This document shows positions 1 to 49,680 of a DNA stretch of 64,000 nucleotides, piece by piece (position 1 is the first letter of the stretch; each line of letters begins with the position of its first letter). Position numbers and translations under genes: made by a program. Under the pieces are notes generated by a model, which had not been told where the DNA came from, did not search any database, and saw nothing but the letters and a program-made list of their open reading frames with translations. The stretch comes from Lingula anatina (lineage: Eukaryota > Animalia > Brachiopoda), in the NCBI GenBank assembly GCA_051362555.1, contig CM120649.1:15576567-15640566 (forward strand), given 5' to 3'.

Positions 1-3000
1 CCAGTTGATAAAACTTCTTCACGTGAAATCATGTGGGAAAGAAAATCAACCAGTCCCACGGGCAGTGAGTTAGAGACATTAGATGAAATGGCAGAATTGT
101 GTGGCCATAGCCCCCTTGCTTTAAAACTGCTAGCTGCATTACTTGATATGAAACCAACAGAAGCAGTTTTAGAGAAAATGAAGACTCAAAAGATATTATG
201 CACTCTTTCCATTCCCAGTATGCCAGACGAAATAAGATTTTGTTTTGATATTTCTTTTGAAACATTAGAACCCGAGACAAGAAAAGTGTTCCTTGCACTG
301 CATATATTCCCCGTTGCTTTTACTCTCAAAGAAGTCTCTGATATTTTAGGATTAGACCCAAATGATTGCGAACATGTCCTTGACAGCCTTGCCGACAAAT
401 CACTCATTAGTGCTGATAATTATATCTATGATATCCACCCCTTAGTTAGGGAATATGCAGAATTCAATGCCCAGAATTCTGACATTGACATTTTTGAAAT
501 TCAACGTGCCTATTGCAGTTATTATATAAAAGCTTTCAAAGTGCTTAAATTCAAAGATGTTGGTGCTTCAAAGACAAACATTTTGTCACATATAAAACAT
601 ACTGCTGCCTTACTTATCAAACATTTAGAAACCCAAGAGGTTTCTGAAAAACTTGAAACTACAGACAAATTAACAGGGATTGCAAACGCACTCTGTGAAT
701 TTTATCTATATAAAGATGCTCTAAACATAAGCAAGGTGGTGGCAAATGAAAGGGAGGTACTGCAAGGTCCCAAACACCCTGAAACTGCCTCTTTCTACAA
801 CAATATTGGCTGGGTACTGCAGGCTATGGGTGAGTATAAAGAGGCACTTGATTATCATAATAAAAGCCTGGCAATGCAAGAGGAGACACTTGGTCCCAAA
901 CACGCTGATACTGCCGACTCTTACGGCAATATTGGCGGCATACTATGGAAAATGGGTGAGTATAAAAAGGCGCTTGATTATCTCAAAAAATGTCTTGCAG
1001 TGAGAGAGGAGATACTCGGTCCCAAACACCCTGATACTGCCTCCACATACAACAATTTTGGAATTGTCCTGAGTGACATGGGTGAGTATCAAGCAGCGCT
1101 TGATTATCATAATAAATGTCTTGCAGTGAGAGAGGAGAAACTCGGTCCCAACCACCGTGATACTGTCTCCTCTTACAACAATATTGGAAATGTACTGCAA
1201 CCCATGGGTGAGTACAAAAAGGCACTTGATTGTTACAATAAATGTCTTGAAGTGAGAGAGAAGATGCTGGGCCCCAACCACCCTGATACTGCCGACTTCT
1301 ACAACAATATTGGTAGTGTGCTGCAAGACATGGGTGAGTATAAAAAGGCACTTGGTTTTTACAATAAATGTACTGCAGTGAGAGAGCAGTTCCTCGGCCC
1401 CAACCACCCTAATACCCTCGACTGCTACAACAATATGGGTAATGTACTGGCACACATGGGTGAGTATAAAAAGGCGCTTGATTCTTACAATAAATGTCTT
1501 GAAGGGAGAGAGAAGATGCTTGGCCCCAACCACCCCGCTACTGCGAACTCCTACAATAACATCGGTAGTGTACTGTCACGCATGGGTGAGTATACAAAGG
1601 CACTTAGTTTTTACAATAAATGTCTTGAAGTGAGAGAGCAGTTGCTCGGCCCCAACCACCCTAATACCCTCGACTGCTACAACAATATTGGCAATGTACT
1701 GGCACGCATGGGTGAGTATAAAAAGGCGCTTGATTATCACACAAAGTGTCTTGAAGTGAAAGAGGAGATACTGGGTCATAACCACCCTGCTACTGCCATC
1801 TGTTACAACAATATTGGTAGTGTCCTACAGGATATGGGTGAGTATAAAGAGGCACTTGACTCTTACAATAAATGTCTTGCAATAGAAGAAAAGATACTCA
1901 GCCCCAACCACCCTGATACCGCCACCTGCTACAACAATATTGGTGGTGTACTGCAGGCCATGGGTGAGTATAAAAAGGCGTTTGATTATTACCATAAATG
2001 TCTTTTAGTGAGAGAGGAGATATTTGGTACCAACCACCCTGATACTGCCTCCTCCTACAACAACATTGGGTTTGTGTACATAGTCATGGGTGAGTTTAAG
2101 GAGGCACTTGATTATTACAATAAATGCCTTGCAGTGAGAGAGGAGACACTGGGTACCAACCACCCTGGTACTGTCTCCTCCTACAACAACATTGGTAGTG
2201 TATTGCAGGGCCTGGGTGAGTTTAAAAAGGCTCTCGACTATTACAATAAATGCCTTGCAGTTAGAGAGAAGATTCTTGGTCCTAACCATCCTGATACCGC
2301 CTCCTCCTACAACAACATTGGTGGTGTACTGCAGGACCTGGGTGAGTTTAAAAAGGCACTTGAGGATTACAATAAATGCCTTACAGTTAGAGAGGAGATA
2401 CTTGGTCCCAACCACCCTGATACTGCCACCTGCTACAACAACATTGGTGGTGTACTGCAGGCCATGGGTAATTATCAAGAAGCGCTTGATTTTCATAATA
2501 AATGTCGTGCAGTTAGAGAGGAAAAACTCGGTCCCAACCACCGTGATACTGTTTCCTCTTACAACAATATTGGAAATGTACTGCAACTAATGGGTGAGTA
2601 CAAAAAGGCACTTGATTGTTACAATAAATGTCTTGAAGTGAGAGAGAAGATGCTTGGCCCCAACCATCCTGATACTGCCACCTCCTACAATAATATTGGT
2701 AGTGTGCTGCAAGACATGGGTGAGTATAAAAAGGCACTTGGTTTTTACAATAAATGTACTGCAGTGAGAGAGCAGTTCCTCGGCCCCAACCACCCTGATA
2801 CCCTCGACTGCTACAACAATATGGGTAATGTACTGGCACACATGGGTGAGTATAAAAAGGCGCTTGATTCTTACAATAAATGTCTTGAAGTGAGAGAGAA
2901 GATGCTTGGCCCCAACCACCCTGCTACTGCCACCTCCTACAATAATATCGGTAGTGTAATGTCACGCATGGGTGAGTATAAAAAGGCTCTTGGTTTTTAC

Positions 3001-4659
3001 AATAAATGTACTGCAGTGAGAGAGCAGTTGCTCGGCCCCAACCACCCTAATACCCTCGACTGCTACAACAATATTGGCAATGTACTGGCACGCATGGGTG
3101 AGTATAAAAAGGCGCTTGATTATCACAAAAAATGTCTTGCATTGAGAGAGGAGATGCTTGGCCCCAACCACCCCGCTACTGCCAACTCCTACAATAACAT
3201 CGGTAGTGTATTGCAGGACCTGGGTGAGTTTAAAGAGGCTCTCGACTATTACAATAAATGCCTTGCAGTGAAAGAGAAGATATTCGGCCCTAACCACCCT
3301 GATACTGCTACCTCCAACAGCAACATTGGTAGTGTACTGCAGGTCATGGGTGAGTATCAAGCAGCGCTTGATTATCATAAAAAATGTGTTGAAGTGAGAG
3401 AGGAGATACTCGGCCCCAGCCAACCGGATACTGCCAACTCCTACAGCAATATCGGATCTGTGCACAAAGCAATGGGTGAGTATCAAAAGGCACTTGACTA
3501 TTACAATAAATGCCTTGCAGCGAGAAAGGAGATACTGGGTCCCAACCACCCTGATACTGTCACCTGCTACAACGATATTGGTGGGGTACTATTGGAAATG
3601 GGTGAGTATAAAGAGGCGCTTGATTATCACAGTAAATGTCTTGCAATGAGAGAGGAGATACTCAGCCCCAACCACCCTGATACTATTAACTCTTACAACA
3701 TTATTTTCAATGTACTGATAGTAATGGGTGAGTATAAAAGGGCACTTGAATATATCAATAAATGCCTTTCAGTGAGAAAGGAGAAACTTGGTCCCAGCCA
3801 CCCTGACATTGCCTGCTCCTATCACAAAATTGGTGAGGTACTGCAATCAAAAGGTGAGTGTAAAGATGCGCGCGATTATTACAGTAAATGTCTTGAAGTG
3901 AGAGAGGAGATACTTGGTCCCAAACACCCTGATACTGCCAACTCCTACTTCAGTATTGGTGGGGTACTATTGGAAATGGGTGAGTATAAAGAGGCGCTTG
4001 ATTATCACAGTAAATGTCTTGCAATGAGAGAGGAGATACTCGGCCCCAACCACCCTGATACTATTAACTCTTACAACATTATTTCCAATGTACTGATAGT
4101 CATGGGTGAGCATAGAAGGGCAGTTGAATATATCAATAAATGCCTTTCAGTGAGAAAGGAGAAACTTGGTCCCAGCCACCCTGACATTGCCTGCTCCTAT
4201 CACAAAATTGGTGAGGTACTGCAATCAATAGGTGAGTATAAAGAGGCGCTTGATTATTACAGTAAATGTCTTGAAGTGAGAGAGGAGATATTTGGTCCCA
4301 ACCACCCTGATACTGCCAGTTCCTACTTCAGTATTGGTGGAGTTCTGCTATTCATGAATGAGTATAAAAAGGCGTTTAATAATTTCAAAAAATGCCGTGC
4401 AGTGAGAGAGGAGATACTTGGTCCCAACCACCCTGATACTGCCATCACAGTCCATATTTGTGATGTTGTATCTAAGCAAGTAAAAGTGCCATGGTGCACA
4501 ATAGTTAATTCATTGAAGCAGTCATATATATTCATATGCAGGTTGTTTTCCTCTCTCATACCCTTTGCCCAGGCAGACAGTTCCCTTATGTTTGTCTTCA
4601 TTGCCTCTCTGTTATCCATACTTTGTTGTACTCTTTACATTTACTCATCTCAATCCTAG
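1..4659 (+). CDS. STAND/NB-ARC-TPR receptor, copy A (5'-partial: end of NB-ARC/winged helix, 29 regular TPRs plus 1 degenerate, hydrophobic C-terminal tail)
   Basis: Frame is open from base 1 (PVDKTSSREIMWERK, matching paralogs B and C). GLPLA-like CGHSPLAL and MHD-like YDIHPLVREY motifs are present. MGEY-type motif recurs every 126 bp from 826 to 4354. The C-terminus reads SSLMFVFIASLLSILCCTLYIY. Walker A/B and the HEPN exon would lie upstream of the window. Confidence 0.92.
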   Translation, partial: PVDKTSSREIMWERKSTSPTGSELETLDEMAELCGHSPLALKLLAALLDMKPTEAVLEKMKTQKILCTLSIPSMPDEIRFCFDISFETLEPETRKVFLALHIFPVAFTLKEVSDILGLDPNDCEHVLDSLADKSLISADNYIYDIHPLVREYAEFNAQNSDIDIFEIQRAYCSYYIKAFKVLKFKDVGASKTNILSHIKHTAALLIKHLETQEVSEKLETTDKLTGIANALCEFYLYKDALNISKVVANEREVLQGPKHPETASFYNNIGWVLQAMGEYKEALDYHNKSLAMQEETLGPKHADTADSYGNIGGILWKMGEYKKALDYLKKCLAVREEILGPKHPDTASTYNNFGIVLSDMGEYQAALDYHNKCLAVREEKLGPNHRDTVSSYNNIGNVLQPMGEYKKALDCYNKCLEVREKMLGPNHPDTADFYNNIGSVLQDMGEYKKALGFYNKCTAVREQFLGPNHPNTLDCYNNMGNVLAHMGEYKKALDSYNKCLEGREKMLGPNHPATANSYNNIGSVLSRMGEYTKALSFYNKCLEVREQLLGPNHPNTLDCYNNIGNVLARMGEYKKALDYHTKCLEVKEEILGHNHPATAICYNNIGSVLQDMGEYKEALDSYNKCLAIEEKILSPNHPDTATCYNNIGGVLQAMGEYKKAFDYYHKCLLVREEIFGTNHPDTASSYNNIGFVYIVMGEFKEALDYYNKCLAVREETLGTNHPGTVSSYNNIGSVLQGLGEFKKALDYYNKCLAVREKILGPNHPDTASSYNNIGGVLQDLGEFKKALEDYNKCLTVREEILGPNHPDTATCYNNIGGVLQAMGNYQEALDFHNKCRAVREEKLGPNHRDTVSSYNNIGNVLQLMGEYKKALDCYNKCLEVREKMLGPNHPDTATSYNNIGSVLQDMGEYKKALGFYNKCTAVREQFLGPNHPDTLDCYNNMGNVLAHMGEYKKALDSYNKCLEVREKMLGPNHPATATSYNNIGSVMSRMGEYKKALGFYNKCTAVREQLLGPNHPNTLDCYNNIGNVLARMGEYKKALDYHKKCLALREEMLGPNHPATANSYNNIGSVLQDLGEFKEALDYYNKCLAVKEKIFGPNHPDTATSNSNIGSVLQVMGEYQAALDYHKKCVEVREEILGPSQPDTANSYSNIGSVHKAMGEYQKALDYYNKCLAARKEILGPNHPDTVTCYNDIGGVLLEMGEYKEALDYHSKCLAMREEILSPNHPDTINSYNIIFNVLIVMGEYKRALEYINKCLSVRKEKLGPSHPDIACSYHKIGEVLQSKGECKDARDYYSKCLEVREEILGPKHPDTANSYFSIGGVLLEMGEYKEALDYHSKCLAMREEILGPNHPDTINSYNIISNVLIVMGEHRRAVEYINKCLSVRKEKLGPSHPDIACSYHKIGEVLQSIGEYKEALDYYSKCLEVREEIFGPNHPDTASSYFSIGGVLLFMNEYKKAFNNFKKCRAVREEILGPNHPDTAITVHICDVVSKQVKVPWCTIVNSLKQSYIFICRLFSSLIPFAQADSSLMFVFIASLLSILCCTLYIYSSQS
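775..4443 (+). repeat. Coding tandem array of 126-bp TPR units (copy A)
   Basis: Exact 126-bp phase, consensus HPDTAxxYNNIGxVLxxMGEYKKALDYYNKCLAVREEILGPN. Higher-order duplications occur at offsets 1386 bp (~1135-1750 vs ~2521-3136) and 378 bp (~3577-3954 vs ~3955-4332). Confidence 0.95.
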
Positions 4660-13544: not shown

Positions 13545-13760
13545 TTAATCGTCTTTCGTCCTCCGTTTCAATTGCTAATTTGCTTTGGGTCATTATCTTG
13601 CATAAATCTATATTTTATGGGGCATTTTATCCCCAATGAGTGGGACCAAAAGCAAAAACTCCACAAATAATTCTGCGTCGAAATGGTACAATTCACAGTG
13701 TGTTTGCAATGCATGTTAAGTTGTCTATAGTTTCAAGTTTTTAAAAAACCTCTTGGTTTT

Positions 13761-15777
13761 CTAAATGTTTGTAAGTAAGGAAGCAGTATGTTTTATTCGT
13801 GATAAAATAGTTGTTTTTGAAGTACCATCATTAAGCATTTTGAAAGCGTTTCTATAATAACTACAATAGGCCTGTTGGATAACTAAAATATCACTGTCAA
13901 AATTCTGGACATTGTATTCTGCATATTCCCTAACTAAAGGATGGATATCATATACGTCATTACCTGCACTAATGAGAGATTTGTTGGCAAGGCTGTCTAG
14001 AATATGTTCACAAGCTTTTTGGTCTAACCCCAAAATAGCAGAGACTTCTTTGAGAGTAAATGCAAAGGGAAATATATGCAGTGCAAGGAACACTTTTCTT
14101 GCCTCGGGTTCTAATGTTTCATAAGAAATATCAAAGCAAGTACTTATTTCTTTTGGCATACTGGGAACGGATATCTTTTCGGTTTGCATTTTCTTTAACA
14201 CTGCTTCTGTTGGATTGTTAGCAAGTAATGCAGCTAGCAATTTTAAAGCTAGGGGGCTATGGCCACACAATTCTGCCATTTCATCTAATGCCTTTAACTC
14301 ACTGTCCGTGGGACTGGTTGATTTTCTTTCCCACATGATTTCACGTGATGAGGTTTTATCAACTGGAGGGATATCTAACATAACTATGTAATGTGTTGTG
14401 AAATCAAACTTTTCACGACTGGTACATAACAAAGTGATATGACGTGTTGAATCCATTACACCCTTCAAAAATTCAATAAACTCTCTTCTATTTGAACTGA
14501 TAATGGGGTCGTTATTATCGAGGATAAGTAATGTGTCTGTAGTCAAACCAGACAAAATCTGCTTGAATATGTTTTTATAATCAGAGTATAAATCTTTCAA
14601 ATTTCGTGATGGGTGATAGTGTTGGACAATTGATAACTTGACAGAGTTAAGATCTGTAACTTTACTCATATCAATGAACAACACATTTTGCATGTTTTGC
14701 CCGATCTTAACTGCTATGCTGGATTTACCGATACCCCCCATCCCGGTCAGGAGAACAAGTGGAACCTTATCACTTATATGTTTCTGTATCTTGGTTATGA
14801 TGCTATCACGTCCCTTCAGCTCTGTGTTCATTCCTGGTAACTCAGTGGGCAGCAGCTGGCAAGGAGTTTCTGAAAAGTACACTGAATATTCTTATTACAT
14901 TTAAAACCTTGGGACAACCATATTAAACTTTTAAATATACTACTCGGTTGTCAGTGATATTGTAACATTAGGGTGTTATACATGTATATAAGAATATAGA
15001 ATTGATATAACTGTAATTGTTTATCCTTGTGCTTTTATAAAATTGGCTCATTTTTTATTTATGTGTCCATTTATTTATGTCTATGTGTGCAGTTGTGTGT
15101 GTGTGTGTGTTTGTGATTGTGCGTGCGAGTGCACACATTTGTATTTGTTTTTTAGCTCTGGTTGCATAGATCTAAAATATTAAGTATTTGGGCAGAAATT
15201 CACCTGAAGCTTCCAGTGGCTGAATCAGCATCATGTCGTAGTAATCGCTAGTATATAATGGCGACAGAGACAGCAGGATATCTCTCAGATCAGTGAACTG
15301 GCTCTGGAAGTCTGCGTCTGAGAGACCCTCTATTCCATGAGCGTTTTTATTGCGGTACGCCTTCACCCTGCCGACGTTGGCCTCAGTTGATTTGTCCGTT
15401 GCTGGAGGATTGCTCCATCTTGCACGAGGATTCAGGTTTGTGATATTTCTTAATAAAACTACGGTCAGAGTAATATCTAAGTCCTGCAGTTGCACAGGAG
15501 GGGCGGGGCTCCCAGGAGGGTAGAGAATTTTCATTTGACTTAGGGTCAAAACTTTCTTCCCTTGTAAGCTGTGCAAGTTTTGTTTCACTGTTTGGTCATT
15601 TAGGACACCAGATATGTCGCCATTACTTGACGGTCCAAACAGAGCCGGGTATCGTGACTGTAACTGGTTACTGAGAACATCTCCAAGTACGTCATTTGCC
15701 AGGCCCAGTAAAAGCTGCATGCGAAAATTATTTTCTTTCTTCTTTATTGCAGTAACCGAGCTAGCCATTTGTGCCAT
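13761..15777 (-). CDS. HEPN-NB-ARC paralog, copy B, truncated before the TPRs (join 15777..15204, 14869..13761; ~560 aa). May be a pseudogene.
   Basis: Acceptor ttgcag|ATG at 15777. Phase-1 GT-AG intron 15203..14870 gives in-frame LEAS-E-TPCQLL. HEPN motifs DLDITLTVVLLRN and YRNKNAH, Walker A GMGGIGKS, Walker B LLILDN, TSRE, CGHSPLAL and IHPL are all present. A 1-bp deletion (gtttg-taag vs gtttgataag in copy C) causes the stop at 13761. Residual homology ends at ~13690. Confidence 0.8.
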
Positions 15778-16334
15778 CTGCAAAAATGACATAGTGGTGT
15801 AAAAGGTTCATCAGGACATTTTCTTTTAAGCTAAGATAAAAACAAAATAGATCGGTATGACAGTTTCATTATGATTTAGTTGTTTTTGTCCCATAATCAA
15901 ATTAAGTACCAGTCTCTTAGTTCAAGAATTTGGTGAAAAAACTCTGAGTTGTGCATTTTTACCTATAAGCATGGAATTTGGCACAGTTGTAGATAATGGA
16001 ATTCTAAGCCATTCGGGATATATGGGCATGTCTGAAAATTCCAATATGGACACCAATTCCGATATGGCCACCACAAATACACTTTTAAATAAAAAATCTA
16101 ATATATAGTCCTAGTTCAGCATTACCCAAACTTTCCAATCAATTACACCATTTATGAATACCGTTCTAGTATGTACAATTTATCTATCCTTTTCTGCGCG
16201 GTCACTGTAACCTTGGACATCTCTTATTATGTCCAAGTTATAACTACAGACCTGTAGCCATTACCTCCATTAATTGTTATTGGTGCTTGAGGAATATGTT
16301 CTGTAATACGTGAATCAAAATTACCAACGTACTA

Positions 16335-16504
16335 CTCTCTACCAGGGCGACTGATAGAATTTTACAGATATTCACAGATATGCCTCTAGCTAGATAGATG
16401 GTCATTTTGGGCTGAAAATGACTTCAGCCCAAAATGACCATATTTCTAGCTAGAGACATATCTGTGAATACCTGCAAAAATCTATCTGTCGCCCTGGTAG
16501 AGGG
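16335..16504. mobile_element. Fold-back MITE (Tc1/mariner-like, TA flanks)
   Basis: ~80-bp inverted arms (ctctctaccagggcgac...ggtcattttgggctgaa / ttcagcccaaaatgacc...gtcgccctggtagaggg) around a ~6-nt loop, with TA on both sides. Confidence 0.75.
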
Positions 16505-17164
16505 TACCAACGCACTTCGACCCTTTTCAAGTTGCATATCATAAAAAGAGGTCTACTGAGATTGCTGTTGCTATCATTTTACATAATGATGTTACTTTTT
16601 TTTGGATCGAAAAATCCCTTATTATGCACGAACACTCCTTTTTGGGTATTGAGAAACAAACCCGCTTTTTCACTTTTTGCTTATTGATTATAGCTTGTCG
16701 TTTGAACTGCACAAACAACTTTTTAGTCCTCTCCTCTCAATTTTAATACACCACTCAGTGACTGGACTTGAAAATTTTGAGTCAACCGCATCCAACGAGT
16801 CATAGATGGCAATAACTTTTATAAGACCATAGACATAAATACTGGCACGCCTCAGGGCTGCGTCATTTCACCTCTATTGTATTCACTGTTTACATTGTGT
16901 TGCTTCGTATCTCGATTGTTTGATTGTTAAAGGTCACCCAGGGTCACCCAAAGTCACCCAGCGAATATGCCTATGTCACCAAGTCGACTACAGTCAACTT
17001 CCACACGTATTAAAATAGCTTTATCCATCAGCAGCACGTATTTTTAATAAGAGAAATGGCTTTTTATAGATTATTTTATTGTATTTTATTTCATCGACAT
17101 ATAATATTAATTTTCATTTTATACTTCTATGCATAAATATGACAATAAATATCAAATAATATTA

Positions 17165-17637
17165 TTAAAGTTGTTTGTCAGTGCGCTCAAGCAACAGGAC
17201 GTACATGTAGTGCTTTTGAAAGTGAAAGAGGAAGGGCTTTTTGAAGAAGAAAAATGCGGAAAAATCTAGCAAACAACACGTTACGTCATAATTTAAGTAA
17301 ATATAAGCAATTTAATATATCAATTTAATGTATCAAATCTAATATATCAGAAATCGTCTACACCTAACATTTGTAAGTGAACTTACCGTAAAGTGACTTC
17401 TTGCTAATATATTTGCGTCGAGCCGCCCACTTTTTTTGACCAACTTTTCCAGGTGATGTGCTTCACTTTCTTTGCGTTATGGTTTGTCTATAGGTTCAAG
17501 TAATAAATCCTGAAAACAGCGTCTTTGAGATGAATATTTAACTCCATTTTTCGGCTAAAAAGACTCGTGGATCTACGTGTGTACTCTGTCTCTGAGTCAG
17601 AGTGTGCAAAAAAAAATGAAAAGGGGTCACATGACAA
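17165..17637 (-). promoter_or_regulatory. Putative promoter, non-coding exon 1 and start of intron 1 of copy B
   Basis: Homologous to ~29965-30420 upstream of copy C. Minus-strand donor acg|gtaagt at ~17386. GTCATGTGAC motif at ~17626-17635. GAAAGTGAAA at 17218-17227. Confidence 0.6.
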
Positions 17638-17656
17638 GATCTTATCTGTACTAGCT

Positions 17657-17750
17657 TGGCTCCCCTGATGAGTCCGCATCGACGAAACACAAAAGTTGAG
17701 CAAACGGCAGGAAAACTGCCGACAGTTCTTTTTTTGTGTCGGGAGTACCA
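17657..17750 (+). ncRNA. Type I hammerhead ribozyme
   Basis: Stem I CUCCC(17660-64)/GGGAG(17741-45), extended by UGG/CCA across a UA bulge. Core CUGAUGA (17665-71). Stem II GUC-cgcauc-GAC. GAAA (17684-87). Stem III CACAAAA/UUUUGUG with an inserted CGGCAG-gaaaa-CUGCCG hairpin. Cleavage triplet GUC at 17738-40. Confidence 0.88.
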
Positions 17751-17899
17751 CTATAGAGTTGTCAGATGCAAGTCCATTGTTATGATAAAATCTTGGCTGT
17801 AGCATAGGTGCATAGGTTGATCACCATTTTAAATAGAGCCAAAGTGCAAACACTACATGATAATATTTTCATGATATGTTTGTTTTGGAGATGTATTAA

Positions 17900-18712
17900 C
17901 TTTATATATTAATCATTAACTTATCCCATGTGCATACTGGTTCATATATCAGGTCCTTCGCGTGGTATATTATCACCTGTGCGTCACAGCTCTTGAAAGA
18001 GTAAATAGTCCAAAGACGTGTGTCAACATAACATGCCACAACAGCCGAATTTAAACTGTATTCTCAATCAAGCCAGTTTCGTGCCATCTGGGTTAAAGAG
18101 GAAGAGAAGTTAAATGAGAGATATCTATGATGGAAGAGATAACTGAACTGGTTTGAAAATCCATTTGCGTTCCGCTCCATGATTTCAATTAACCGCACGT
18201 GGAAGTTTGGATCGGATACGAACACTTATTTTGAAGGTCAAACCAGTGTATCTATCTCTTCTCCCACATTCAAGCATCGTCGATGGTGCAAGAAAAACCC
18301 ATTATTTAACCCTTTTTTGCACCTTACTCGGGGATTTCAATTAGAAAGACAACCGACTTGGAACCTAAGTTGATTTGGTGAGACAATTTGCTAATGACTG
18401 ACGACACAAATATTCAAATTAAAGGTATAATGTCAACAGCAAGATGAAAACTTCCGATGACATAAAATTTAATTGAACGTTATTTTCACCTACATGTAAT
18501 TTTATCATGATTCAGCATTTTGTAAAATACTGATATTAATCATTTACCAAATACAGGTGCGCGTGCGTTTGCTCAAAGTTTATTAGCTGGTAAACTGGTC
18601 GCTCATCTCTCACGTTTATCATCCGCTAGTGGCCTTTTCATTCATTTCCATAAATATAAACGTATCAGTTAAGACACACAGTTATAAATAAGGTGTCAGC
18701 AGACATGATTAG
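17900..18712 (+). repeat. ~0.8-kb diverged dispersed repeat, inverted copy at ~38860-39670
   Basis: Colinear matches include cattcaagcatcgtcgatggtgca (~18267 vs reverse complement ~39305-39328) and ccataaatataaacgtatcagttaaga (~18648 vs reverse complement ~38898-38924). Confidence 0.8.
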
Positions 18713-21700
18713 GCACCGTGTATCAGGTATGTTGACAACCTATGCACCAAGCTCGTCATTATTTTATTATCCAAAGTGATCGTGGCATAAAACCAAAGAA
18801 CCCCAAAATAGAAAAAGAAAACAAAATACAAAACAAGGCAGAAGACGGGGGGAAGGAGGTGAGAGGACTTACTGAATGACTCCCCTTTTAATAAATCCTT
18901 TGTGTTAAAGAACATACTTTTAAAAAATCAATGTATCAAAGTAAGACAAAAATATACGATTGATTAGACTAATACTAGAATACCATGTGTTGTAAGTGTT
19001 ATGCCCGGAGGAATTAACCCTTTACTTTAATTGTGCATCATTTTTATTAACATTGCAATAAGTGGTAGAAATCACGGCAAAATATCCGAGGCAGACAACG
19101 AAAAACCTTAATTCACAATTTTGAATTTCTAACAAAATTGAATTGCATGGGCGAGAAAAAGAAACCTTTGGCAAAATATCAAAGTTCGCCAAACAGCGCA
19201 TCGGTGGTGGCACATGAAGATGAAGATGTGACATAGGTGTGGAGTTACAATCAATTGGCACGTTGTGGCATCTAGACGTGTGGTCTTTGCATTACTATAA
19301 AGGTGTATACGATTACTTTAGTGAAAAGTGCCCTTACTTTAATTATTATACGCAAGTATATTGGTCACAGAGGAAAGAAATTTGTGAAAGGTGAAATACG
19401 CTGTCAAATATTGGACAAAACTAAAGATACAAGTAAGTTTATTTTACATCTCTTGGACAATCATTGGATACCTTGTACATTTCTCCAAGTACATAATTTC
19501 ATATAGATATTCATATTAATTGTATGAAATCCATTCATTATTCTTAGCGTTCATTTCTCCAAGTGAATATTTTCATATAAAAATATTCAATTTTTAATTG
19601 TATTAAATCCATTTTTGCGTCTTTAGCAATGTTTATGTAATACACAAGCTGTAACCATGGATTCCATTGTGGTGAAGAAAATCAACCAATGATATATATA
19701 GTTACATCTGAATTGTTCCAAATATGCAATACTAACTGCCCCGGAAATTAGTATTTCTTTCTCTAATTTGATGATCTACGCCATCGACAACTATCAAATA
19801 CCCGTATGCAAGCACTTGTAGACTTAAAAAACTATTGTCACTACAATCATCTAGGAATAAAGCTATGGCCCATATTTTAAACAACATTTACTACGCTTTC
19901 TATGAGCAAACAACTTTTCAACTATCAAATTTCCATCAAAACCAATAGCAATACAATAGAGTATTCCAAGGCCTTATTTCCTTTTGTCTTTAGTTTCATT
20001 GTCAGATATCTAGATCCTGCAATAATGGTTAGATAATACCCAAACAAATGTTTATTTACCAAAGGAAATTCAAGTGTATTGTCTGTGTCAAAAATACATT
20101 CTGATTTGGCTTCTATGTATGGATCTCACACGCTGTCCTATACTTATTTTCAGTACAGCAGCATTTATGTAGCGTTAACCTTATGACTATCAAACATCTG
20201 GTATGTCAAATATTATTTCTATATTGGCAAACTAGCAACAATATCGGGCAAGTGAGAGAACAGTTTCATTAGCTCTGTAGCCTATGTATCAATTCAAATT
20301 ATTCTTTTTCTTTTTATCAAGAGCTCTTGATAAAAAGAAAAACGATAGTTTGAATAGCGGGCAAGCACTCAAGTACATGTATTGAAAAGTGCCACTATGA
20401 AATAAGTGTACAATTGGTATTCAAAATGACAGCAATATTAGTTAACCTAGAACTTAATTTCCGATAAAAAGGACAATGATATTTTTGAAATATACAGATA
20501 TTTCACCAAACAGATTCCATCTACGTTAAATATCACACTGGCAATATGTAGAATCTGTTTAGACGCCCAAACTATTGGGTTATCCTGGCAGCGTGTACAA
20601 GACAATATACTAAATCAGTCACTGGCTTCACTTCAGCTCAAAAAGAACTTAATTACAAGAACATAAGGTTGATAAGAGAGAAACTGCTCGTCATCACAGT
20701 TCACACACACAACTTAAAACCATCCACAAATCTCAGGGTGGTAAAAATAAGTTAACACTGGTGTGCAATTCATTTAAAAGAAAGAAAACCTGAATACGCA
20801 AATTCAAAATAACAGAAATAAGACAAAGCTCCTCTTAACACATAATTAATTCTTTAAAAAAATACTGCAAACAATTTACTCTCATGATAACTGACTTTTT
20901 TCTTTTAAAAATGAACCTTGCACTGCACAGTAGTTGCTACGGCAATCCAGCATACTGTTATGGTGATTTATCAGGAAAATAAGGGCTTGAAGCTATTAAG
21001 CATCAGGTTTCATGGGACATTGGTCCTAAGAAATGATATTACTGGGTTAACCAATCTTTATCTTCTACTCCCCAGGAGGTGTGTGTGTGTAGGGGGGGGG
21101 GAGCTAGGGCGGGGGGGGGGACCTGAATGATCCAGCACATAGGCGTGGTGACAGGTGGTAAAGCCGATCAGAGCCCCCAATTTTTGCTGGTAAATATCAG
21201 TTAATTTTATCTACAGCAATTGGCAAATGAAACTTCAATGGTCTTTGGGTTATGCTTGTATTGGATTATGACAGCCTTGATGTAGTTAAAGCAGGGGCGG
21301 ATTTAGGCAATAAAGATAATTTGGAAGCCTGTCAGAATATAAAATGGATAATAAGTGCCTGTATGTGACTTAGCTACAATGCAGAACTCACATTGAGTCC
21401 TAGAACTGAGGGAAGTATATGTAAAGAGCACAACACGGTGATTGGATAACAGAGAGGCGAAGGAAGACAAATATGAAGGAACAATGTGTCTGGATGAAGG
21501 GCGTGAGAGAAAAAAAACACGTTAATCGATTGCTTCGATGAAGAGAATGTTCCCACAGTGTACTGGTAGTTTGCACTCTTAAAAACTTCCAAGACAATTA
21601 ATTAAGAAAATACATTTGGCTAGAAAGACTGGAGAAGAATATTGTGATGATTAAAGAGGAGTAAATAATACACTCCATTCCATGTAACACCCTTTACTAT

Positions 21701-21916: not shown

Positions 21917-24900
21917 CTAAATAATTGTACACCATAGCCATCTGACTAAATCAAGATGGTACATTTTGGATAAACGATCTAAAAGTTTAATTGTTCTCAC
22001 AGTATCAGGGTGGTTGGGACCAAGTATCTCCTCTCTCACTGCAAGACATTTATTGTGATAATCAAGTGCCTCTTTATACTCACTCATGGCCTGTAACACG
22101 TTACCGATATTGTTGTAGGAGGCGGCGGTATAAAGGTGGTTGGGGCCGAGTATCTCCTCATTCACTGCAAGGCATTTATGGAAATAATCAAGTGCCTCTT
22201 TGTACTCACCCATGGCCTGTAGTACAATGCCAATATTGTTGTAGCAACCAGCAGTATCAGGGTGTTTGGCGCCAAGTATCTCCTCTCGCACTGCAAGACA
22301 TTTTTTGTAATAATCAAGTGCCTTTTTGTACTCACCCATGGCCTGCAACACATTACCGATATTGTTGTAGGAGGCAGCGGTCTCAAGGTGGTTGAGACTA
22401 AGTATCTCCTCTCGCACTGCAAGACATTTATTGTAATAATCAAAGGCTGCTTCATACTCACCCATGGCCTGAAGCACACTTCCAATATTGTTGTAGGATG
22501 CGGCAGTATCAGGGTGTTTGTGGCCAAGTGTCTCCTCTCTCACTGCAAGGCATTTATTGTGATAACCAAGTGCCTCTTTATGCTCACCCATGGCCTGCAA
22601 CACATTACCAATATTTTTGTAGGTGTCGGCGGTATCAGGGTGTTTGGGGCCAAGTATCTTCTCTTCCACTGCAAGACTCTTTTTGTAATAATCAAGTGCC
22701 TTTTTATACTCATCCATGGCGTGCAACACATTACCAATATTGTTGTAGACTTTGCCAGTACTAAGGTGGTTGGGACCAAGTATCTCCTCTCTTACTGCAA
22801 GGCATTTATGGTAATAATCAAGTGCCTTTTTATACTCACCCATGGCCTGTAACACATTACCAATATTGTTGTAGACTTTGCCAGTACTAGGGTGGTTGGG
22901 ACCAAGTATCTCCTCTCTCACTACAAGGCATTTATTGTGATAATCAAGTGCCTCTTTATACTCACTCATGGCCTGTAACACGTTACCGATATTGTTGTAG
23001 GAGGCGGTGGTATCAAGGTGGTTGGGGCCGAGTATCTCCTCATTCACTGCAAGGCATTTATGGAAATAATCAAGTGCCTCTTTGTACTCACCCATGGCCT
23101 GTAGTACAATGCCAATATTGTTGTAGCAATCAGCAGTATCAGGGTGTTTGGCGCCAAGTATCTCCTCTCTCACTGTAAGACATTTACTGTGATAATCAAA
23201 GGCTGCTTTATACTCACCCATGTCCCGCAACACACTACCGATATTGTTGTAGCAGGCAACAGTATCAGGATGGTTGGGACCGAGTATCTCCTTTCTCACT
23301 GCAAGACATTTATTGTAATAATAAAGTGCCTCTTTATACTCACCAATGGCCCGCAGTAAAATGCCGATATTGTTGAAGGAGGCAGCAGTATTAGGGTGTT
23401 TGGGGCCAAGTATCTCCTCTCTCACTGCAAGACATTTTTTGTGATATTCAAATGCCTTTTTATACTCACCCATGGCCTGCAACACATTACCAATATTGTT
23501 GTAGGAGGCGTCAATATCAGGGTGTTTGGGACCAAGTATCTTCTCTCCCACTGCAAGACATTTTTTGTAATAATCAAGTGCCTTTTTATACTCACCCATG
23601 GCGTGCAACACACTACCAATATTGTTGTAGCAACCAGCAGTACCAGGGTGGTTGGGACCAAGTATCTCCTCTCTCACTGCAAGACATTTTTTGTGGTAAT
23701 CAAATGCCTTTTTATACTCACCCATGGCCTTCAACGCATTACCAATATTGCTGTAGGATACGGCAGTATCAGGGTGGTTAAGACCGAGTAACTCCTCTCT
23801 CACAGAAAGACTTTTATTGTAATAATCTAGTGCCTCTTTATACTCACCCATGCCACTCCGTATAAGTCCAATATTGTTGTAGGAAGCGGCAGTTTCAGGG
23901 TGGTTGTGGCCGAGTATCTCCTCTCGCACTGCAAGACATTTATTGTAATAATCAAGTGCCTCTTTATACTCACCCATGGCCTGTAGTACCCCGCCGATAT
24001 TGTTGTAGGAGTCGGCAGTATTACGGTGGTTCGGGCCTAGCACCTCCTCTCGCACTTTAAGACATTTATTGTAATAATCAAGTGCCTTTTTATACTCACC
24101 CATATGTAGTAGTTCACAACCAATATTGTTGTAGGAGGATGCAGTATCAGGATGGCTGGGGCCGAGTATCTTCAGTTTCACTGCAAGACATTTTTGGGAA
24201 ATATCCAGTGCATTTTGATACTCACCTAAATCACACATTACTAAACCAATACCATCGTAGGAGTTTGCAGTATCAGGGTGGTTGGGACCGAGGATCTCCT
24301 CTCTCACTGCAAGACATTTATTGTAATAATCAAGTGCCTCTTTATACTCACCGATGGCCTGCAGTAAAATACCGATATTGTTGTAGGAGGAGGCAGTATG
24401 ACGGTGGTTCGGGCCTAGCATCTCCTCTTTCACTGCTAGACATTTAACGTGATAATCAAATGCCCTTTTATACTCACCCATGGCCTGCAGTACATTGCCG
24501 ATATTGTTGTAGCAGCTCGCAGTATCGGGGTGGTTGGGACCGAGTATTTGCTCTTGCAGAGCAAGGCTTTTTTTGTAATGATAAAGAGCCTTTTTATACT
24601 CACCTATATTTAGAAGTACAGTGCCAACATTGCCGTGGAAGGTGGCAGCAAAAGGGTGTATGGGACCGAGTGTCTCTTCTTGTATTGCAAGACTTCTATT
24701 GAGATAATCAAGCGCTTTTTTATACTCACCCATGGCCTGCAACATAGTGCCAACATTGTTGTAGCAGCTGGCAGTATCAGGGTGTTTGGGACCGAGCACC
24801 TCCTCTGCCAATGCAAGACATTTTTTGTAATAATCAAGTGCCTCTTTATACTCACCCATAGCCTGCAGTACCCTGCCAATATTGTTGTAGGAGGAGACAG

Positions 24901-27016
24901 TTTCATAGTGTAGTACCTCCTTTTCATGTGCCACCACCTTGTAAATGTGTAAAGCATCCTTATAGAGGTAAACTTCACAGAGTGCGTTTGCAATCCCTGT
25001 TAAATTTTCTATAGTTTCAAGTTTTTCAGAATCCTGTTGGATTTCTAAATGTTTGATAAGTAAGGCAGCAGTATGTTTTATATGTGATAAAACATTTTTT
25101 ATTTTAAGCATTTTGAAAGCTTTTATATAATAACTGCAATAGGCACGTTGAATTTCAAAAATGTCATTGTCAGAATTCTGGGCATTGCATTCTGCATATT
25201 CCCTTACTAAAGGGTGGATATCATAGATATCATTATCTGCACTGATGAGTGATTTGTTGGCAAAGCTGTCTAGGAAATGTTCACAATCATTTGGGTCTAA
25301 TCCTAAAATATCAGAGACTTCTTTGAGAGTAAATGCAACGGGAAAAATATGCAGTGCAAGGAACAATTTTCTCGCCTCAGGTTCTAATGTTTCATAAGAA
25401 ATATCAAAGCAAGTGGTTATTCCCTTTGACATACTGGGAATGGAAAGAGTGCGTAATATTTTTTTAGTCTTCATTTTCCCTAACACCCTTTCTGTAGATT
25501 TATTAGCAAGTAATGCAGCTAGCAATTTTAAAGCTAGGGGGTTATGGCCACACATTTCTGCCATTTCATCTAATGCCTTTAACTCAATGTCCGTGGGACT
25601 GGTTGATTTTCTCTCCCACATGATTTCACGTGATGAGGTTTTATCAACTGCAGGAATGTCTAACACAACTATGTTATGTGTTGTGAAATCAAACTTTTCA
25701 CGACTGGTACATAACAAAGTGATATGGTGTGTTGAATCCATTACACCCTTCAAAAAGTCAATAAACTCCTTTCTATTTGAACTGATAATAGAGTCGTTAT
25801 TATCGAGGATAAGCAATGTATCTGTAGTCAAACCAGACAAAATCTGTTTGAATACGTTTTCATAATCAGAGTATAAATCTTTCAAAGGGCGTGTTGGGTG
25901 ATAGTGTTGGACAAGTGATAACTTGACAGATTTAAGATCTGAAACTTGCCTCATATCAATGTACAACACATTTTGCATGTTTTGCCCGATCTTAACTGCT
26001 ATGCTGGTCTTACCAATACCCCCCATACCGGTCAGGAGAACGAGTTGTTTTTCTTCGATATGTTGGTGTATTTTGGTAATGATGTCATCACGCCCCTTCA
26101 GTTCTGTGTTCATTCCTGGTAACGCAGTGGACAGCAGCTGGCAAGGGGTTTCTGAAAAGTACACTGAACATTTTTATCGCATTTTTAACCTAGGGGCACC
26201 GATACATAATTTTTTCCTGAAAATATACAACTCGGCTGTCAATAACATTGTGAGATTAGAGTGTTACATGTATTTATATTTTGAATGAGTATTACTGAAA
26301 TTATTTATGCTTGTGCTTTTATAAATGTGACTTAATACTTTGATTTAATGAATCATCTGTGTGTCAATTTGTTTGTGGTTATCTGTGTGTGTGCACGCAC
26401 CTATATTAGTATTTCCATTAACTGTGGCTGTATTGATGTTAAGTATTAAATATATGAGCATAAATTCACCTGAAGCATCTAATGGTTGAATCAGCAACTT
26501 ATCGTAGTCATCGCTTGTATACAATGTCGACAGAGACAGCAGAGGAGCTTTTAGATTAGTGAACTGGCTCTGGAAGTCTGCGTCTGAGAGTCCATCTGTT
26601 TCATGAGCGTTTTTATTGCGGTACTCCTTCACCCTGCCGATGTTGGCCTCAGTTGATGTGTCCGTTGCTGGAGGATTGTCCCATTTTGCATGAGGATTCA
26701 GGTGGGTGATATGTCTTAATAAAACCACGGTCAGGGTAATATCCAAGTCCTGCAGTTTGACAGGAGGGTAGAGAATTTTCATTTGAGTACGGTTCAAAAC
26801 TTTCTTCACTTTTAAGCTGTGCAAGTTACATTTCACTGTTTGGTCATTTAGGACACCAGATATATCGCCATTACATGATGGTCCAAACAGCCCCGGGTAC
26901 CGTGACTGTAACTGGTTATTGAGAACATCTCGAAGTACGTCGTTTGCAAGATACAGTAAAAGTTGCATACGGAAATGGTTTTCTTGCTTCTTTCGTGTAG
27001 TCTCCGAGCCAGCCAT
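21917..27016 (-). CDS. Complete HEPN-NB-ARC-TPR receptor, copy C (join 27016..26470, 26151..21917; ~1593 aa, 23 regular TPRs plus 1 degenerate)
   Basis: Acceptor ttgcag at 27026 and ATG at 27016. Phase-1 GT-AG intron 26469..26152 is in frame (LDAS-E-TPC). HEPN DLDITLTVVLLRH and YRNKNAH, Walker A GMGGIGKT, Walker B LLILDN, CGHNPLAL and IHPL are present. MGEY-type motif recurs every 126 bp from 24859 to 22087. Confidence 0.92.
22000..24905 (-). repeat. Coding tandem array of 126-bp TPR units (copy C)
   Basis: 126-bp phase with a block duplication at offset 882 bp (ggtgtttggcgccaag at 22261 and 23143). STGKVYNNIGNVL appears in two adjacent units. Confidence 0.95.
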
Positions 27017-28221
27017 TTGTGTCTTCTGCAATAATCACAAGATGGTTTAAAGGTTCATCAGGACATTTCCATTTTCTCATAATTATTTGTTAAGGTAAGA
27101 TAGAACAAATGGATCACAAAGTCAGTATCATTCTAAGATATAATTGGTATTTTTTTTATCTGACTGATAGAATAGTAGTGTAAATTTCATATGCGCTGTT
27201 AGTGCAGGGCAAACTGGTAGTTTTTCACGGAGTTCGATTAAGAGTTTTTTGCCCCGACCCGTCCAGACCACTGGCTCTGTCGGCTCCACGCCACGTTGCC
27301 AGACACCAATCACGGTTAAGCTTTTCCTAGAATACAAGAACCTATGTTTTCATCTTTTAAACCCCATATATTTTGTGCTCTTTTTGTGCATTTGAATTAG
27401 GGTGATGCTCGTCGCAATGCACCCTTGTCATTTGTTGTAATTCAATTGCTAAATATCCTCCCGAGCCGAAGGAAAAATTTCTATGGAAGTCTGACCGAAA
27501 GTCATTTGTAGATATATACTGTATTTCAAAAATGACCTAGGATTTCACCTTTGACCTCTATTCGAAGGTCAAATGGGCTAACATTAAAAAATATACATCC
27601 ATATCTACCAAAAACATTTGCTGGCGGCACAACATCTTGTAAAGTCTTTGCCTTAACCGGCACTTAAAGATCTTTACTAATGCAGTTTGCCAGACTCGGT
27701 CGTAAGAGTGTTCGGGCACGATCTTGCATGCTTTAGTTAACACAAACAACTTCCTTTAAAGTTTCTAATGAAGAAATAATTACATTGGGGAATATCTACG
27801 GTGCAAATACTGTTTACCCTGTCTTGTGCATGGCCACTTGTGTTAACATACATGCAACCGCAGGGTATTCCCCAACACAGGAATGATCAACTGCACTAAA
27901 TGTGACAAAATCAATAACTGATTAAAATGTCACTACTGGATTCTTTAGTTGGAATCACAGGTTTATTGCCCTGTCACTGATGTAGATGTGGGTACTCTAA
28001 ATCTTGACCGCTCAATTTCAACAAAGCTATAATTTAGTGAGTCACACACAAATATTGCCCACCTCCTTACGACAAAATTTAAGAAAAAAGTGTAAATATA
28101 TGTAATAAACATTAGCATTTTCTTTACAACCTGGCTGTGGTATCGCCATTCTGATTTCGCCAATTAGTTTTCTTGTATTGTCTTTTACTTATTAAAATTT
28201 TAAAGGTATATCGATGATTAC

Positions 28222-29964: not shown

Positions 29965-30420
29965 TTAAAGTTGTTTGTCAGTGCTCTCTACTAGCAACAT
30001 GGCATACTGCTTATGAAAGAGAAAGAGGAAGTGCATTTTGAAGAGGAAATATATGTAAAAACTTAGCAAATACAACACGTTGTCATAATTTAAAGTATTT
30101 TGCAAACAATTTAACAAGATTATATATCAAAACTCATCCACACGTAGCATTTGTAAGCCGAAAGAGCGAGCTTACCGTAAATTGACTTCCTTCGCTTACA
30201 CCTTCTTCTTTTCTTTGTTGAACAGCTTTTCCAGGTGATGAGCTTGACTTTCTCTGTAAATTGGTATGTCTGTATCTGTATATGTCTATAGGTTCAAGTA
30301 ATAAATCTTGAGAACACAGTCTTTGGGGTGAACATATAGCGCCGTTATTCGATTAATCAGACCCATTCGTGTGTATTGTTACTCTGTCTCTTAGAAACAA
30401 CAGAAGGGTCACATGACAAA
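29965..30420 (-). promoter_or_regulatory. Putative promoter, non-coding exon 1 and start of intron 1 of copy C
   Basis: Homologous to 17165-17637. Donor acg|gtaagc at ~30176. GTCATGTGAC at ~30408-30417. GAAAGAGAAAGAGGAAGTG at 30015-30033. Confidence 0.6.
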
Positions 30421-39670: not shown

Positions 39671-41768
39671 AACGTTAATGCAACACAGTTAAAAGATTAT
39701 GCATAACGAGAACATAAACTTGAGTGTACAGAGAGAAGCATTTATGCAGTAGATTAGCAGCATAATAGAAGCATGTTTCATTAATTAGCTTCCACATCTT
39801 CTCCGGTGAAGTACACAAAAAGCATTATTCTATAAGCAGCACTGCACTGGCGTGCATCGAATACTTCAAAGATGCTCCACAGGGGTAGATTTGGAGCATA
39901 CAAGAAAAGAGCAATGCTCCGCGGAGGTAGATTTGGAGTATATCAGAAAAATGTTCCACTGCAACAGTACTCCACGGAGATAGTTTCGAGGTATGTTATA
40001 AAAAAGGGAATGCTTGTGCATTTCTCATCAATGGAAGTTTTGAGGTATATAAAAAGGAATATGCAATAGGAAGGTTTCCTACAGTATATAGTAAATTCAA
40101 CACACACTAAATTAAACTAATAATCAGCAGATAGCGTCACTTTATTCATACGGTCTATACATCAAGAAATAGACGGATAGAAATTTGTTTTATTGGTTAT
40201 TAATTACAAAATGTCCATACACAATTTCAGTGTTTTCTCAAAAATTCATTTTCTCGTGACAAATATTGAATCCGCTTGCCCTCATGTGTGATCTGGTTTG
40301 GGGTCCTAAAAACAAATAAAACAAAATAAATATCCGAGTTCCAGTGCACTTGATTGATTTGCTGGAACGTCTCTGACTTTATAATAGCAACCAAGATATT
40401 TGAAAGCGCCTTTTACAACAATGACTTGCATGAAGTGTTAAAAATACTTTTTTGGGGGTGAAGGCTAGGTAACGTAGCTAAAAACACACCTGTCGTTCTC
40501 CCCTCAAGAATATAGTATCCATACGTCCCAGTGTGAGGTTTCAGCTGGACTCCTAAAAATCCAATCAAACAATAAATATCACAGTTCCAGTACACTTGAT
40601 GGAAAGTCTTAAACTCTTATAGTACCCAAAATATTTAAAAGCGTCCTAATTAACACTGACATTCTAAGTGGATTCATGAAAATACTACAACTTATTTACA
40701 AATATGAGTTGTGGATAAATTTCTGCAGCCCGTATTGTCTAAACGTTTTTAACATTTAAATTGGGTGCTTTTTAAATTCGACGTATTTAATCGAAACACA
40801 CACACACACAAAAAAAATTAACACATTTGATAAAACAGACATTTCGTTACTTTGTTTCCTTTTTCATAAATTGTAAACTTCACCATTGTATTTGTAATGT
40901 TTATCAACATACTTTCATAACTTGCATGAGTCTCTGCTCGAGACTGTTTAATTATGAAAATATGAATTTAAAGTTTGCCTGGGAATAGGTTCAAGTGAAA
41001 AATGACTGGTGAGCCAAAAATAAATAAAATGAAATACAAATTCATGCCAGGGATTTTAAACTTGTATTTAAGCTGAAGTTAGGTGTTCATACTTATTTAA
41101 AATCCCTTCTCCCTTCAGTAATTGCCTGCAAGACCCCAACCTTTCCACCGATCACTGAAAAAAGATTACAATTACAAATATTTTAATTATCTATAACGTT
41201 CATTTAAAACCAACTAGCTATAAGAATAGAAGTTTAAGTGGACATAATACTGCCATCATAAAATGTTACAGTATTTCAGCTGATTAAACCTTTATTACGT
41301 GGCTGACAAGGGCTTGAGATGCAGTCGCAATGTTGTTCTCGGTGGTTTGGGCTACAAATCACGAGAAATACCCATTTAAACCGTTGGGCTGTCATCGATT
41401 TTATCCACAATTATAAATGATAATTAAAGATTTTTTATTGTTATGTGCATCCGAGGATGAAATTGTTTCAAGATAGATGAAGTACTTACCACTTAAACCC
41501 CTTTTGTGTCATTCTTGCAGGGAAGGGCCTTCAGAGGATCTTCTAATTGCACGCAGGCAGAGTAAAAATGCAATATTGTACTATTGGGGAGAAGCATTAT
41601 GCTTCATTTCTACTGTGATTTTGTGAAGCATGGTTGCAGTAGAATGCTACTTCTGGGGAGTATATACAGGTACTTCATCCATACCTCAAATCGAAGCAGA
41701 TTTGAGGCATACTTGCAGTATGATTGCAGAAGTCTACTGGAGTATCTACTGCGTTTTCGTGAGGGAAG

Positions 41769-48949: not shown

Positions 48950-49680
48950 TGTCGTTGTCTCTATAGTAGAAGTTCTGGGAATAATGTGGTCAGAAAGTTA
49001 AAATTTTGCAGCTGCCATTTCTTTCTAGCTGTCAAATGTTGAGATGCTTGTCCTGATTTCTTTTTATACACATTTCCAACGGCGGTCCGTTGGTTTCTTC
49101 ACCATCCAGTAATATTCTTTGCTGGTGAATAAAGATGAGAAATCATTGTTAAAATTTATTTCATTGTCAAAACGATCGTTTTGTTTGTGGTTGATAGAAG
49201 TCCTTAATTTGCACTTAGCACCGACAATTAAAAGCATCCAATTAAAAAAATTAAATAAATATGTTAAGTGTACTTACGGTATGAATTTAATTCTCTGGAC
49301 AGATCAGCCAACAGCTTATCGTTATGGGTCTGGTTTGAATAATTAGGGTGGGCTTTGTTGTACAAACACTCGTTATCAGAGAAGAACTCCACCAACTTCT
49401 CCTCTTTACATGAGCTAAAATAATGTGAACTTTTCTGATCCATTTCCACATACTGTTGCTCCTCCTCACCCTCATCTTGTTCCTCTTCTTGGAAATGATC
49501 GCTCTCCTCTCCATTGCCTCTGTCCACTTCCAAACTGTCTCTCTCATCTTCCTGTCGTGTTTCCCCTGCTTCTTCACTGACCATGTCCACTTCTTCCAAG
49601 AGCCTTGGTGACTCTCTTGTTGCTTGGCTTGCCCCAGCCCCCTTTTCCCCCTCTTGCTCTTTGTTGACTTTTTTTGACAT
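48950..49680 (-). pseudogene. Harbinger Myb/MADF-like DNA-binding gene (first two exons), inactivated
   Basis: ATG at 49680, an acidic N-terminus, then EEKLVEFFSDNECLYNK..NYSN. Donor gtaagt at 49277. The next exon reads GW*RNQRT..G...KKSGQA...LTARKKWQLQNFNFL, with a stop and a frameshift. Confidence 0.75.

Follow-up and report, generated by a model that had tools for sequence, protein, structure and literature searches.

The motif at positions 17657-17750 of the window (the whole 64,000-nt stretch of Lingula anatina DNA analyzed here) is a real type I hammerhead ribozyme sequence. The evidence points to the stranded 3' end of a lost inhibitor of apoptosis (IAP) gene as its source. The explanation that we favor, and consider reasonably probable as a whole, combines this stranded 3' end with a small Lingula IAP subfamily in which a hammerhead at the stop codon would lower gene output, and with decay of the copy present in the window.

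Results

Identification of the hammerhead

The motif (Table 1) has the core CUGANGA, GAAA, an NUH triplet and the G10.1-C11.1 pair, and its three helices have their open ends in helix I, as expected of type I. A stem I bulge and a stem II loop are both present, and inside stem III lie a helix of 4 bp and a hairpin of 6 bp whose loop is GAAAA. The original prediction of a type I hammerhead in + orientation is borne out by several lines of analysis. Within the 64 kb, both strands included, it is the only descriptor match; stems of 5/3/6 were reached by 0 of 200 order-3 Markov windows, compared to 10 of 200 for a loose descriptor. The region folds with z = -3.9 (an equally good fold occurred in 1 of 200 shuffles), and pair probabilities are 0.85-0.98 in stem III and 0.47-0.97, depending on context, in stem I. 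A covariance model trained on 35 metagenomic type I hammerheads, from a non-redundant set of 57, gave one strong match, at 17655-17750 (30.9 bits, E ~2e-7; runner-up 11.8 bits); since a pattern derived from the window motif served to choose the training set, the test is in part circular. A search with the Rfam hammerhead families, which had been proposed as a check, returned no match to the motif at gathering score or at E<=10.

The earlier description of the motif as canonical is accurate for the core and the three helices but not for stem III, which greatly exceeds the length usual in metazoans. In the account excerpted from Cervera and De la Pena (2014; PMC4209133), helix III of the canonical metazoan type I motif has 1-2 bp and its loop is palindromic, whereas the Lingula motif has nine pairs plus the inner hairpin, and GAAAA is not palindromic. 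Of 120 metagenomic loci that carry this core pattern, 97 fold as type I, most with ~6 stem III pairs, an outcome that the pattern itself favors; none of the 120 is a sequence or flank relative of the window motif beyond the core. Two exact matches to the hammerhead core (L024:1000-1028 and L025:1501-1528) stand on a single metagenomic contig together with several cleavage-site-like repeats of 14-18 letters, which suggests that this contig has multiple ribozymes.

Table 1. Positions in the window of the hammerhead, its parts and the features around it
Feature	Positions	Strand	Basis or remark
Type I hammerhead	17657-17750	+	Descriptor, fold, covariance model
Stem I	5' strand 17657-17664; 3' strand 17741-17750	+	UA bulge in 3' strand
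Catalytic core CUGAUGA	17665-17671	+	
Stem II	17672-17683	+	Window copy: 3 bp and 6-nt loop
Private C	17680	+	Non-allelic copies covering the site read G
GAAA	17684-17687	+	
Stem III	17687-17695 with 17731-17739	+	9 pairs counting A15.1-U16.1
GUC cleavage triplet	17738-17740	+	Predicted cut after C17740
Predicted distal stem I extension	17645-17766	+	Stop-codon region pairs with 17757-17766 (predicted structures)
Last codons and TAG stop (17652-17654) of lost IAP (BIR-RING) paralogue	17643-17654	+	Y-L-Y-stop
Likely internal deletion point	17759-17774	+	Other copies diverge after 17758 and before 17775
Non-coding 3' flank common to the window's intact IAP	17888-18814	+	Homologous to 39686-38764 (-)
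Upstream block that receptor copies B and C have in common (first exon and promoter, both putative)	17165-17637	-	Sequence homology; promoter inferred
Intact IAP, uninterrupted 627-aa ORF, BIR, UBA and RING domains	41769-43652	-	Without hammerhead after stop

An IAP stop codon precedes stem I

The window contains an intact IAP gene, whose product shares 93% identity with a RefSeq protein of Lingula anatina; the best match in another animal reaches 44% over 58% of its length. RefSeq has three close IAP models. The letters TAT CTG TAC TAG that precede the hammerhead resemble the end of this gene: 17643-17657 and the IAP stop region (41780-41766, -) are identical at 13 of 15 positions, and besides the self-match this is the only match in the window with two or fewer mismatches.

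Further copies of the hammerhead were sought in contigs of four public DNA runs (X1, X2, X3 and X15, out of nine for which contigs exist) aligned to the locus. Eight contigs among those listed depart from the window sequence exactly at 17643 (two in X1, four in X3, two in X2). In these eight contigs the hammerhead trails IAP-like stops, by the evidence of ends of 19-69 letters, which would place it at a 3'-UTR position in a host gene family. Three loose ends, read by hand from 30-letter consensuses with agreement of 0.66-0.80, are free of stops in frame and give ESKITGTVKT, NTKFRGTVKT and LRKSTGTVKT, each followed by the Y-L-Y-stop of the window. The first of them, from X1, compares with ESKIRGTVKT in the RefSeq IAP P0002; the C-termini of the window IAP and of P0002 are GFKIRDTVKTYLC-stop and ESKIRGTVKTYLC, respectively. 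When ranked against 4,264 window tiles, the X1 loose end, the one of the three to which this ranking was applied, came first at the IAP stop (tile 41771-41830, -) in all three scoring schemes. All upstream loose ends among those listed are IAP-like. No contig of the DNA runs spans a whole IAP gene together with the hammerhead, and short IAP C-termini did not turn up when searched for.

Because the upstream letters of the copies and positions 17643-17657 both match the IAP stop region, stem I can be placed 3 nt past an IAP-type stop codon, and the predicted cut 86 nt past it. The other hammerhead copies would then probably sit on IAP genes and not only on remnants of them.

Copies of the hammerhead in the sequencing runs

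The original prediction called the hammerhead solitary, and this description fails once sequence outside the window is considered, as other copies are present in contigs of the four DNA runs. Contig depth climbs over the hammerhead in all four, and at least nine non-allelic contigs, among 24 pieces listed from 33 aligned contigs, begin at 17641-17643 and cross the core (four in X1, four in X3, one in X15). At 17644-17661 the non-allelic contigs sum to a depth of 459 in X1 (allelic contig, 65.8) and 360 in X3 (allelic contig, 44.7), although summed contig depth does not equal copy number, as the tool itself warns. Non-allelic depth is thus about 7-8 times that of the allelic contig and therefore indicates a handful of loci, not a transposon family of hundreds; as judged by depth, it suggests a family at roughly four loci.

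Most copies appear to be identical over 17677-17729, since single high-depth unitigs cover this interval (433 in X1, 300 in X3); variants close to contig ends are left out of the variant lists, which bears on how conservation of the core is read. In stem II, an A>C change at 17682 in other copies (149/149 in X15, one contig in X1) disrupts a pair. The copies diverge from the window by ~5-10%, too little to reveal selection.

The downstream flank and the retrozyme alternative

Downstream of the hammerhead, the flank at 17888-18814 aligns to its counterpart near the intact IAP with an nhmmer E of 8e-105 and ~70% identity. The counterpart lies ~2 kb past the stop of the window IAP, on the IAP sense strand. 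Two X3 contigs lead from the 3' arm of the hammerhead into the flank, in order (17755-18205-18242-18680 and 17758-18608), by joints whose sides are only 24-30 letters and which are flagged as often unreliable. Loose ends are found behind 17758 (one contig in X1, three in X15) and before 17775 (one in X1, one in X3). Because the other copies hold extra sequence there, the window copy has likely lost sequence between 17758 and 17775.

Nothing in the flank points to coding: there was no synonymous excess, 12 frames gave no Pfam match, and 0 of 168 candidates scored. A coding origin based on one plant protein match was dismissed as low-complexity and spurious, and an LRR-like appearance noted by eye was not supported. 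Attempts to map a downstream loose end to the IAP 3' region gave best ranks of 6, 21 and 8 of 4,264, which is unconvincing. Near the ends of the flank there is an imperfect inverted repeat of ~45 bp (17782-17826 and 18728-18770), with a score reached by 1 of 300 shuffles.

The original prediction had offered as one possibility that the hammerhead is a relic of a retrozyme-type insertion. That it is a relic is probably correct, but its source appears to be the 3' end of an IAP paralogue. As an alternative, a non-LTR retrozyme or a non-autonomous Penelope derivative, represented by a ~1.1-kb monomer or fragment consisting of hammerhead and body, could have inserted beside promoter B. The motif is indeed multi-copy, and the body is non-coding, has the paired ends just described and folds more stably than its shuffled versions (z -3.4, n = 25). 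Retrozyme monomers, for their part, occur commonly and measure up to 972 bp, according to the portion of a preprint consulted here (bioRxiv 10.64898/2026.07.22.740005). Against such an insertion, every listed upstream loose end is IAP-like, depth indicates a handful of copies, and the in-window paralogue of the body sits downstream of an IAP gene. Tandem arrangement is not apparent either, as there are no go-back joints among the aligned contigs and no tandem hammerhead units within the window, and an X1 contig with 638 nt past the motif has no second hammerhead there. A circular-permutation reading, in which the end of the body would be the start of the next retrozyme unit, was not significant (ranks 60, 1535 and 82 of 4,264 tiles), and inspection by eye revealed no convincing target-site duplication. 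The statement that no second copy or reverse transcriptase (RT) is visible in the window was correct; Pfam searches of nine reading frames and of the 12 flank frames detected no Penelope RT or GIY-YIG frame near the hammerhead. Insertion of a retrozyme or Penelope-type unit is thus largely refuted and, in our judgment, very unlikely.

Against the reading as a stranded IAP 3' end, which we prefer, stands the intact window IAP, which has no hammerhead downstream of its stop. For a possible decayed hammerhead in the first 110-165 nt of its UTR, 0 of 990 random tiles scored as well against the motif, but, depending on which of three scorings was used, 4, 16 or 911 of 1000 shuffles did. The ~2 kb that separate this stop from the common flank (39687-41765, -) have weakly inverted ends, a feature reached, with three scorings, by 1, 0 and 65 of 300 shuffles; they may be an old DNA transposon whose insertion moved the hammerhead block away or took its place. 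The last BIR of bilaterian XIAP/DIAP2-like genes is divided over exons, as stated in the section of PMC13159474 that deals with them. Since the ORF of the window IAP is uninterrupted, this hints at a retrogene lineage.

Other frames and repeats lie elsewhere in the window. The frames of a DDE_Tnp_4 transposase (45680-46654, +) and a MADF protein (49264-49977, -) face each other, presumably as in PIF/Harbinger elements. An inverted duplication of ~790 bp with 94% identity occupies 50757-51541 and 53649-54432. A 360-aa tyrosine-recombinase frame at 61160-62242 (-), which matches Phage_integrase with a score below the curated cut-off, is adjoined by a 95-bp tandem array at 62393-63212.

The receptor genes beside the hammerhead

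The window has three paralogous NB-ARC/TPR receptor-like genes: copy A (1-4444, +), copy B (13685-15827, -) and copy C (21917-27074, -). Copies B and C have an N-terminal HEPN_DZIP3 exon. Arrays of a 126-bp repeat number ~29 units in copy A and ~23 in copy C, and copy B ends just past its NB-ARC region. The Pfam scan of nine window frames found HEPN_DZIP3, NB-ARC and TPR in copy C, and HEPN and NB-ARC without TPRs in copy B; the same scan returned the IAP (BIR, UBA, RING), the DDE_Tnp_4 transposase, MADF and the tyrosine recombinase.

As originally described, the homology between the upstream blocks of B and C stops at ~17637, and copy C has no hammerhead. The B block includes a 5' splice-like site at 17381-17386. 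Two of nine RNA runs, with poly(A) or unspecified selection, were aligned at about 6% of each: X9 placed one read on 17000-18800 and none on the hammerhead or this block, and X6 placed none on 17590-17830; we give these blanks no weight. GTCACATGAC occurs only twice in the window, at 17626-17635 and at 30408, and GTCATGTGAC, a motif that we take to be M-box-like, is found at 17626-17635 and 30408-30417, in the upstream blocks of B and C only. The putative first intron of B contains a MITE-like, near-perfect palindrome (87%) of 174 bp at 16333-16506.

Decay of the window copy

The private C at 17680 is shared by the window and the X1 allele, and contigs of the other copies have G (892/957 of the depth in X1, 1019/1019 in X3, 149/149 in X15). 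G at this position gives a stem II of 4 bp with a 4-nt loop, and C abolishes the fourth pair. With C17680, the predicted minimum-energy fold pairs loop II to the catalytic core. The active fold costs 2.2-2.6 kcal/mol above this minimum in ViennaRNA, which ignores tertiary contacts and Mg2+, so that a misfolding penalty of 2.2 kcal/mol may be overcome. The predicted share of the active fold is 0.011-0.027 for the window copy (six sequence contexts at three temperatures) vs 0.50 with G17680, and the probability of stem II pairs in the window copy is 0.05-0.07, so the active fold is not the dominant predicted one. A dominant alternative fold had been named at the outset as an observation that would count against the hammerhead; it is predicted for the window copy, whose active share is ~0.03 vs ~0.5 with the letter of the other copies.

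The locus also varies among runs. It is intact with both flanks in X1 and nearly intact in X2, and X1 or X2 may be the assembly's own source run. In X3, the allelic contig extends from the promoter to 17680 and continues into other sequence, and the flank resumes at 17790. In addition, the GTCATGTGAC motif is altered at 17630 in the X1 and X3 alleles. Because of the predicted misfold, the interrupted X3 allele and the altered adjacent motif, the window copy is probably a decaying remnant and not a selected terminator; as predicted from the fold, it is probably inert.

These observations bear directly on the second possibility raised originally, that the hammerhead terminates divergent transcripts. 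The window copy would have been co-opted to cut + strand transcripts from the B promoter, which would agree with its position (the conserved B/C block ends ~20 bp away), its orientation away from B and its integrity in X1 and, nearly, in X2. However, its private change is predicted to sequester the core, the X3 allele is interrupted at the very site of that change, and the neighboring motif is altered in two alleles. Moreover, copy B itself is truncated and no such element exists at copy C. Such co-option is therefore disfavored, and we regard it as extremely unlikely.

Discussion

The data are best explained by a gene end that has lost its gene. The segment 17643-18814 would represent the 3' end of an IAP paralogue, with four codons including TAG, the hammerhead 3 nt later and ~1 kb of flank. 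This paralogue would once have stood head-to-head with receptor copy B, until a deletion removed the remaining gene; very probably it was such a deletion that joined the B upstream block to the last IAP codons. The hammerhead itself would have been acquired by an ancestral IAP copy, probably from a retroelement-type motif.

What the hammerhead would do in the genes that still carry it is a separate question. The 4-bp stem II and long stem III of the family motif would allow it to cleave as a monomer. Monomeric cleavage is expected because stem III is long, unlike that of the animal motifs with a short helix III, which depend on dimers for cleavage, as reported in the relevant part of PMC4209133. 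A cut 86 nt past the stop would detach the poly(A) tail from the capped coding part, so that the mRNA would decay and IAP expression would likely be lower or shorter-lived. That the family motif cuts as a monomer in vivo in this manner is a prediction that we find credible without holding it to be the expected outcome.

Translation may provide a further layer of control. Judging by the size of its footprint, a ribosome that terminates at this stop would sit on the 5' strand of stem I. It would thereby open stem I, and translation could modulate cutting. In its strongest form, this leads to an intronless Lingula IAP subfamily with a selected, monomer-active hammerhead 3 nt past the stop that cuts off the poly(A) tail and is gated by translation, a proposal that we put forward only tentatively and consider unlikely in all its details.

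It is also conceivable that the hammerhead does nothing for its hosts. A fragment of a hammerhead-bearing retroelement could have landed once past the stop of an ancestral IAP and been duplicated with the gene as a neutral passenger with no selected role, on carriers that may be pseudogenes. Metazoan type I hammerheads are mostly retroelement-borne, as far as the consulted parts of PMC7229834 and PMC4209133 go. The intact window IAP has no hammerhead, a variant that breaks a stem II pair is common in X15, and the copies are too similar to the window for selection to show. This account shares the gene context of the one we favor and differs on function only, and it accommodates less readily the position 3 nt past the stop with the predicted extension of stem I over the stop region, the complete monomer-type fold, unlike minimal Penelope-like element (PLE) motifs, and the identity of most copies over 17677-17729. 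A purely neutral passenger therefore seems to us rather improbable, while deserving serious consideration. We continue to favor an IAP subfamily whose output is lowered by its hammerhead. In the translation-gated form, if true, the hammerhead would act as a natural self-destruct timer of an anti-apoptotic mRNA, gained and lost among paralogues. Paralogues with and without the hammerhead would constitute a natural experiment on ribozyme tuning of gene dosage.

In the portions of the literature consulted, genomic hammerheads of animals are nearly all tied to retroelements; the host genes named as bearing one are those of mammalian Clec2, in the 3' UTR, and a few amniote genes, in introns. In the main texts of the mostly open-access literature searched, we found no paper that joins a hammerhead ribozyme with an inhibitor of apoptosis and none relevant for Lingula; the word "ribozyme" is absent from the main text of the IAP family papers found, including PMC13159474. 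A contiguous hammerhead with a long stem III at the stop of several brachiopod IAP paralogues would thus be a further case of a host-mRNA ribozyme.

The Lingula motif shares features with several known systems. Its topology and bulged stem I, together with the stem II of the other copies (4 bp, 4-nt loop), recall metazoan type I hammerheads and non-LTR retrozymes as characterized in sections of PMC4209133, PMC7229834 and 10.64898/2026.07.22.740005. However, those form tandem non-coding units, often in thousands of copies, whereas the Lingula copies are few and have IAP-like coding ends upstream. The large helix III, which permits monomeric cleavage, is a likeness to fungal and protist Penelope-like and to prokaryotic type I hammerheads (PMC4209133, in part), but unlike Penelope-like elements the Lingula motif has no RT or GIY-YIG gene nearby. 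The amniote hammerheads of RECK and C10orf118 are also low-copy type I motifs in host genes and are thought to be domesticated from retroelements, according to the pertinent passages of PMC6155905 and PMC3088659. They are intronic and conserved in amniotes, while the Lingula motif follows IAP-like stops and has no Rfam match.

The closest parallel is offered by Clec2, a host immune gene family in which, according to the extracts from PMC4041007 and PMC6155905, several paralogues have a hammerhead in their 3' UTR, placed so as to part the coding region from the poly(A) tail, as the Lingula motif would do. Clec2 3'-UTR hammerheads lower reporter output by ~80% (Martick et al., 2008, as cited in the part of PMC4041007 consulted). 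The same extracts describe the Clec2 motifs as discontinuous type III hammerheads with an insertion of 250-790 nt, in contrast to the contiguous type I motif of Lingula. The latter differs further in its location 3 nt past the stop, its long stem III, its invertebrate IAP family and its cleavage, which is predicted. It is thus plausible that the Lingula family is a new variant of the 3'-UTR hammerhead theme and, if the selected, translation-gated form of our reading is true, an invertebrate counterpart of the Clec2 ribozymes.
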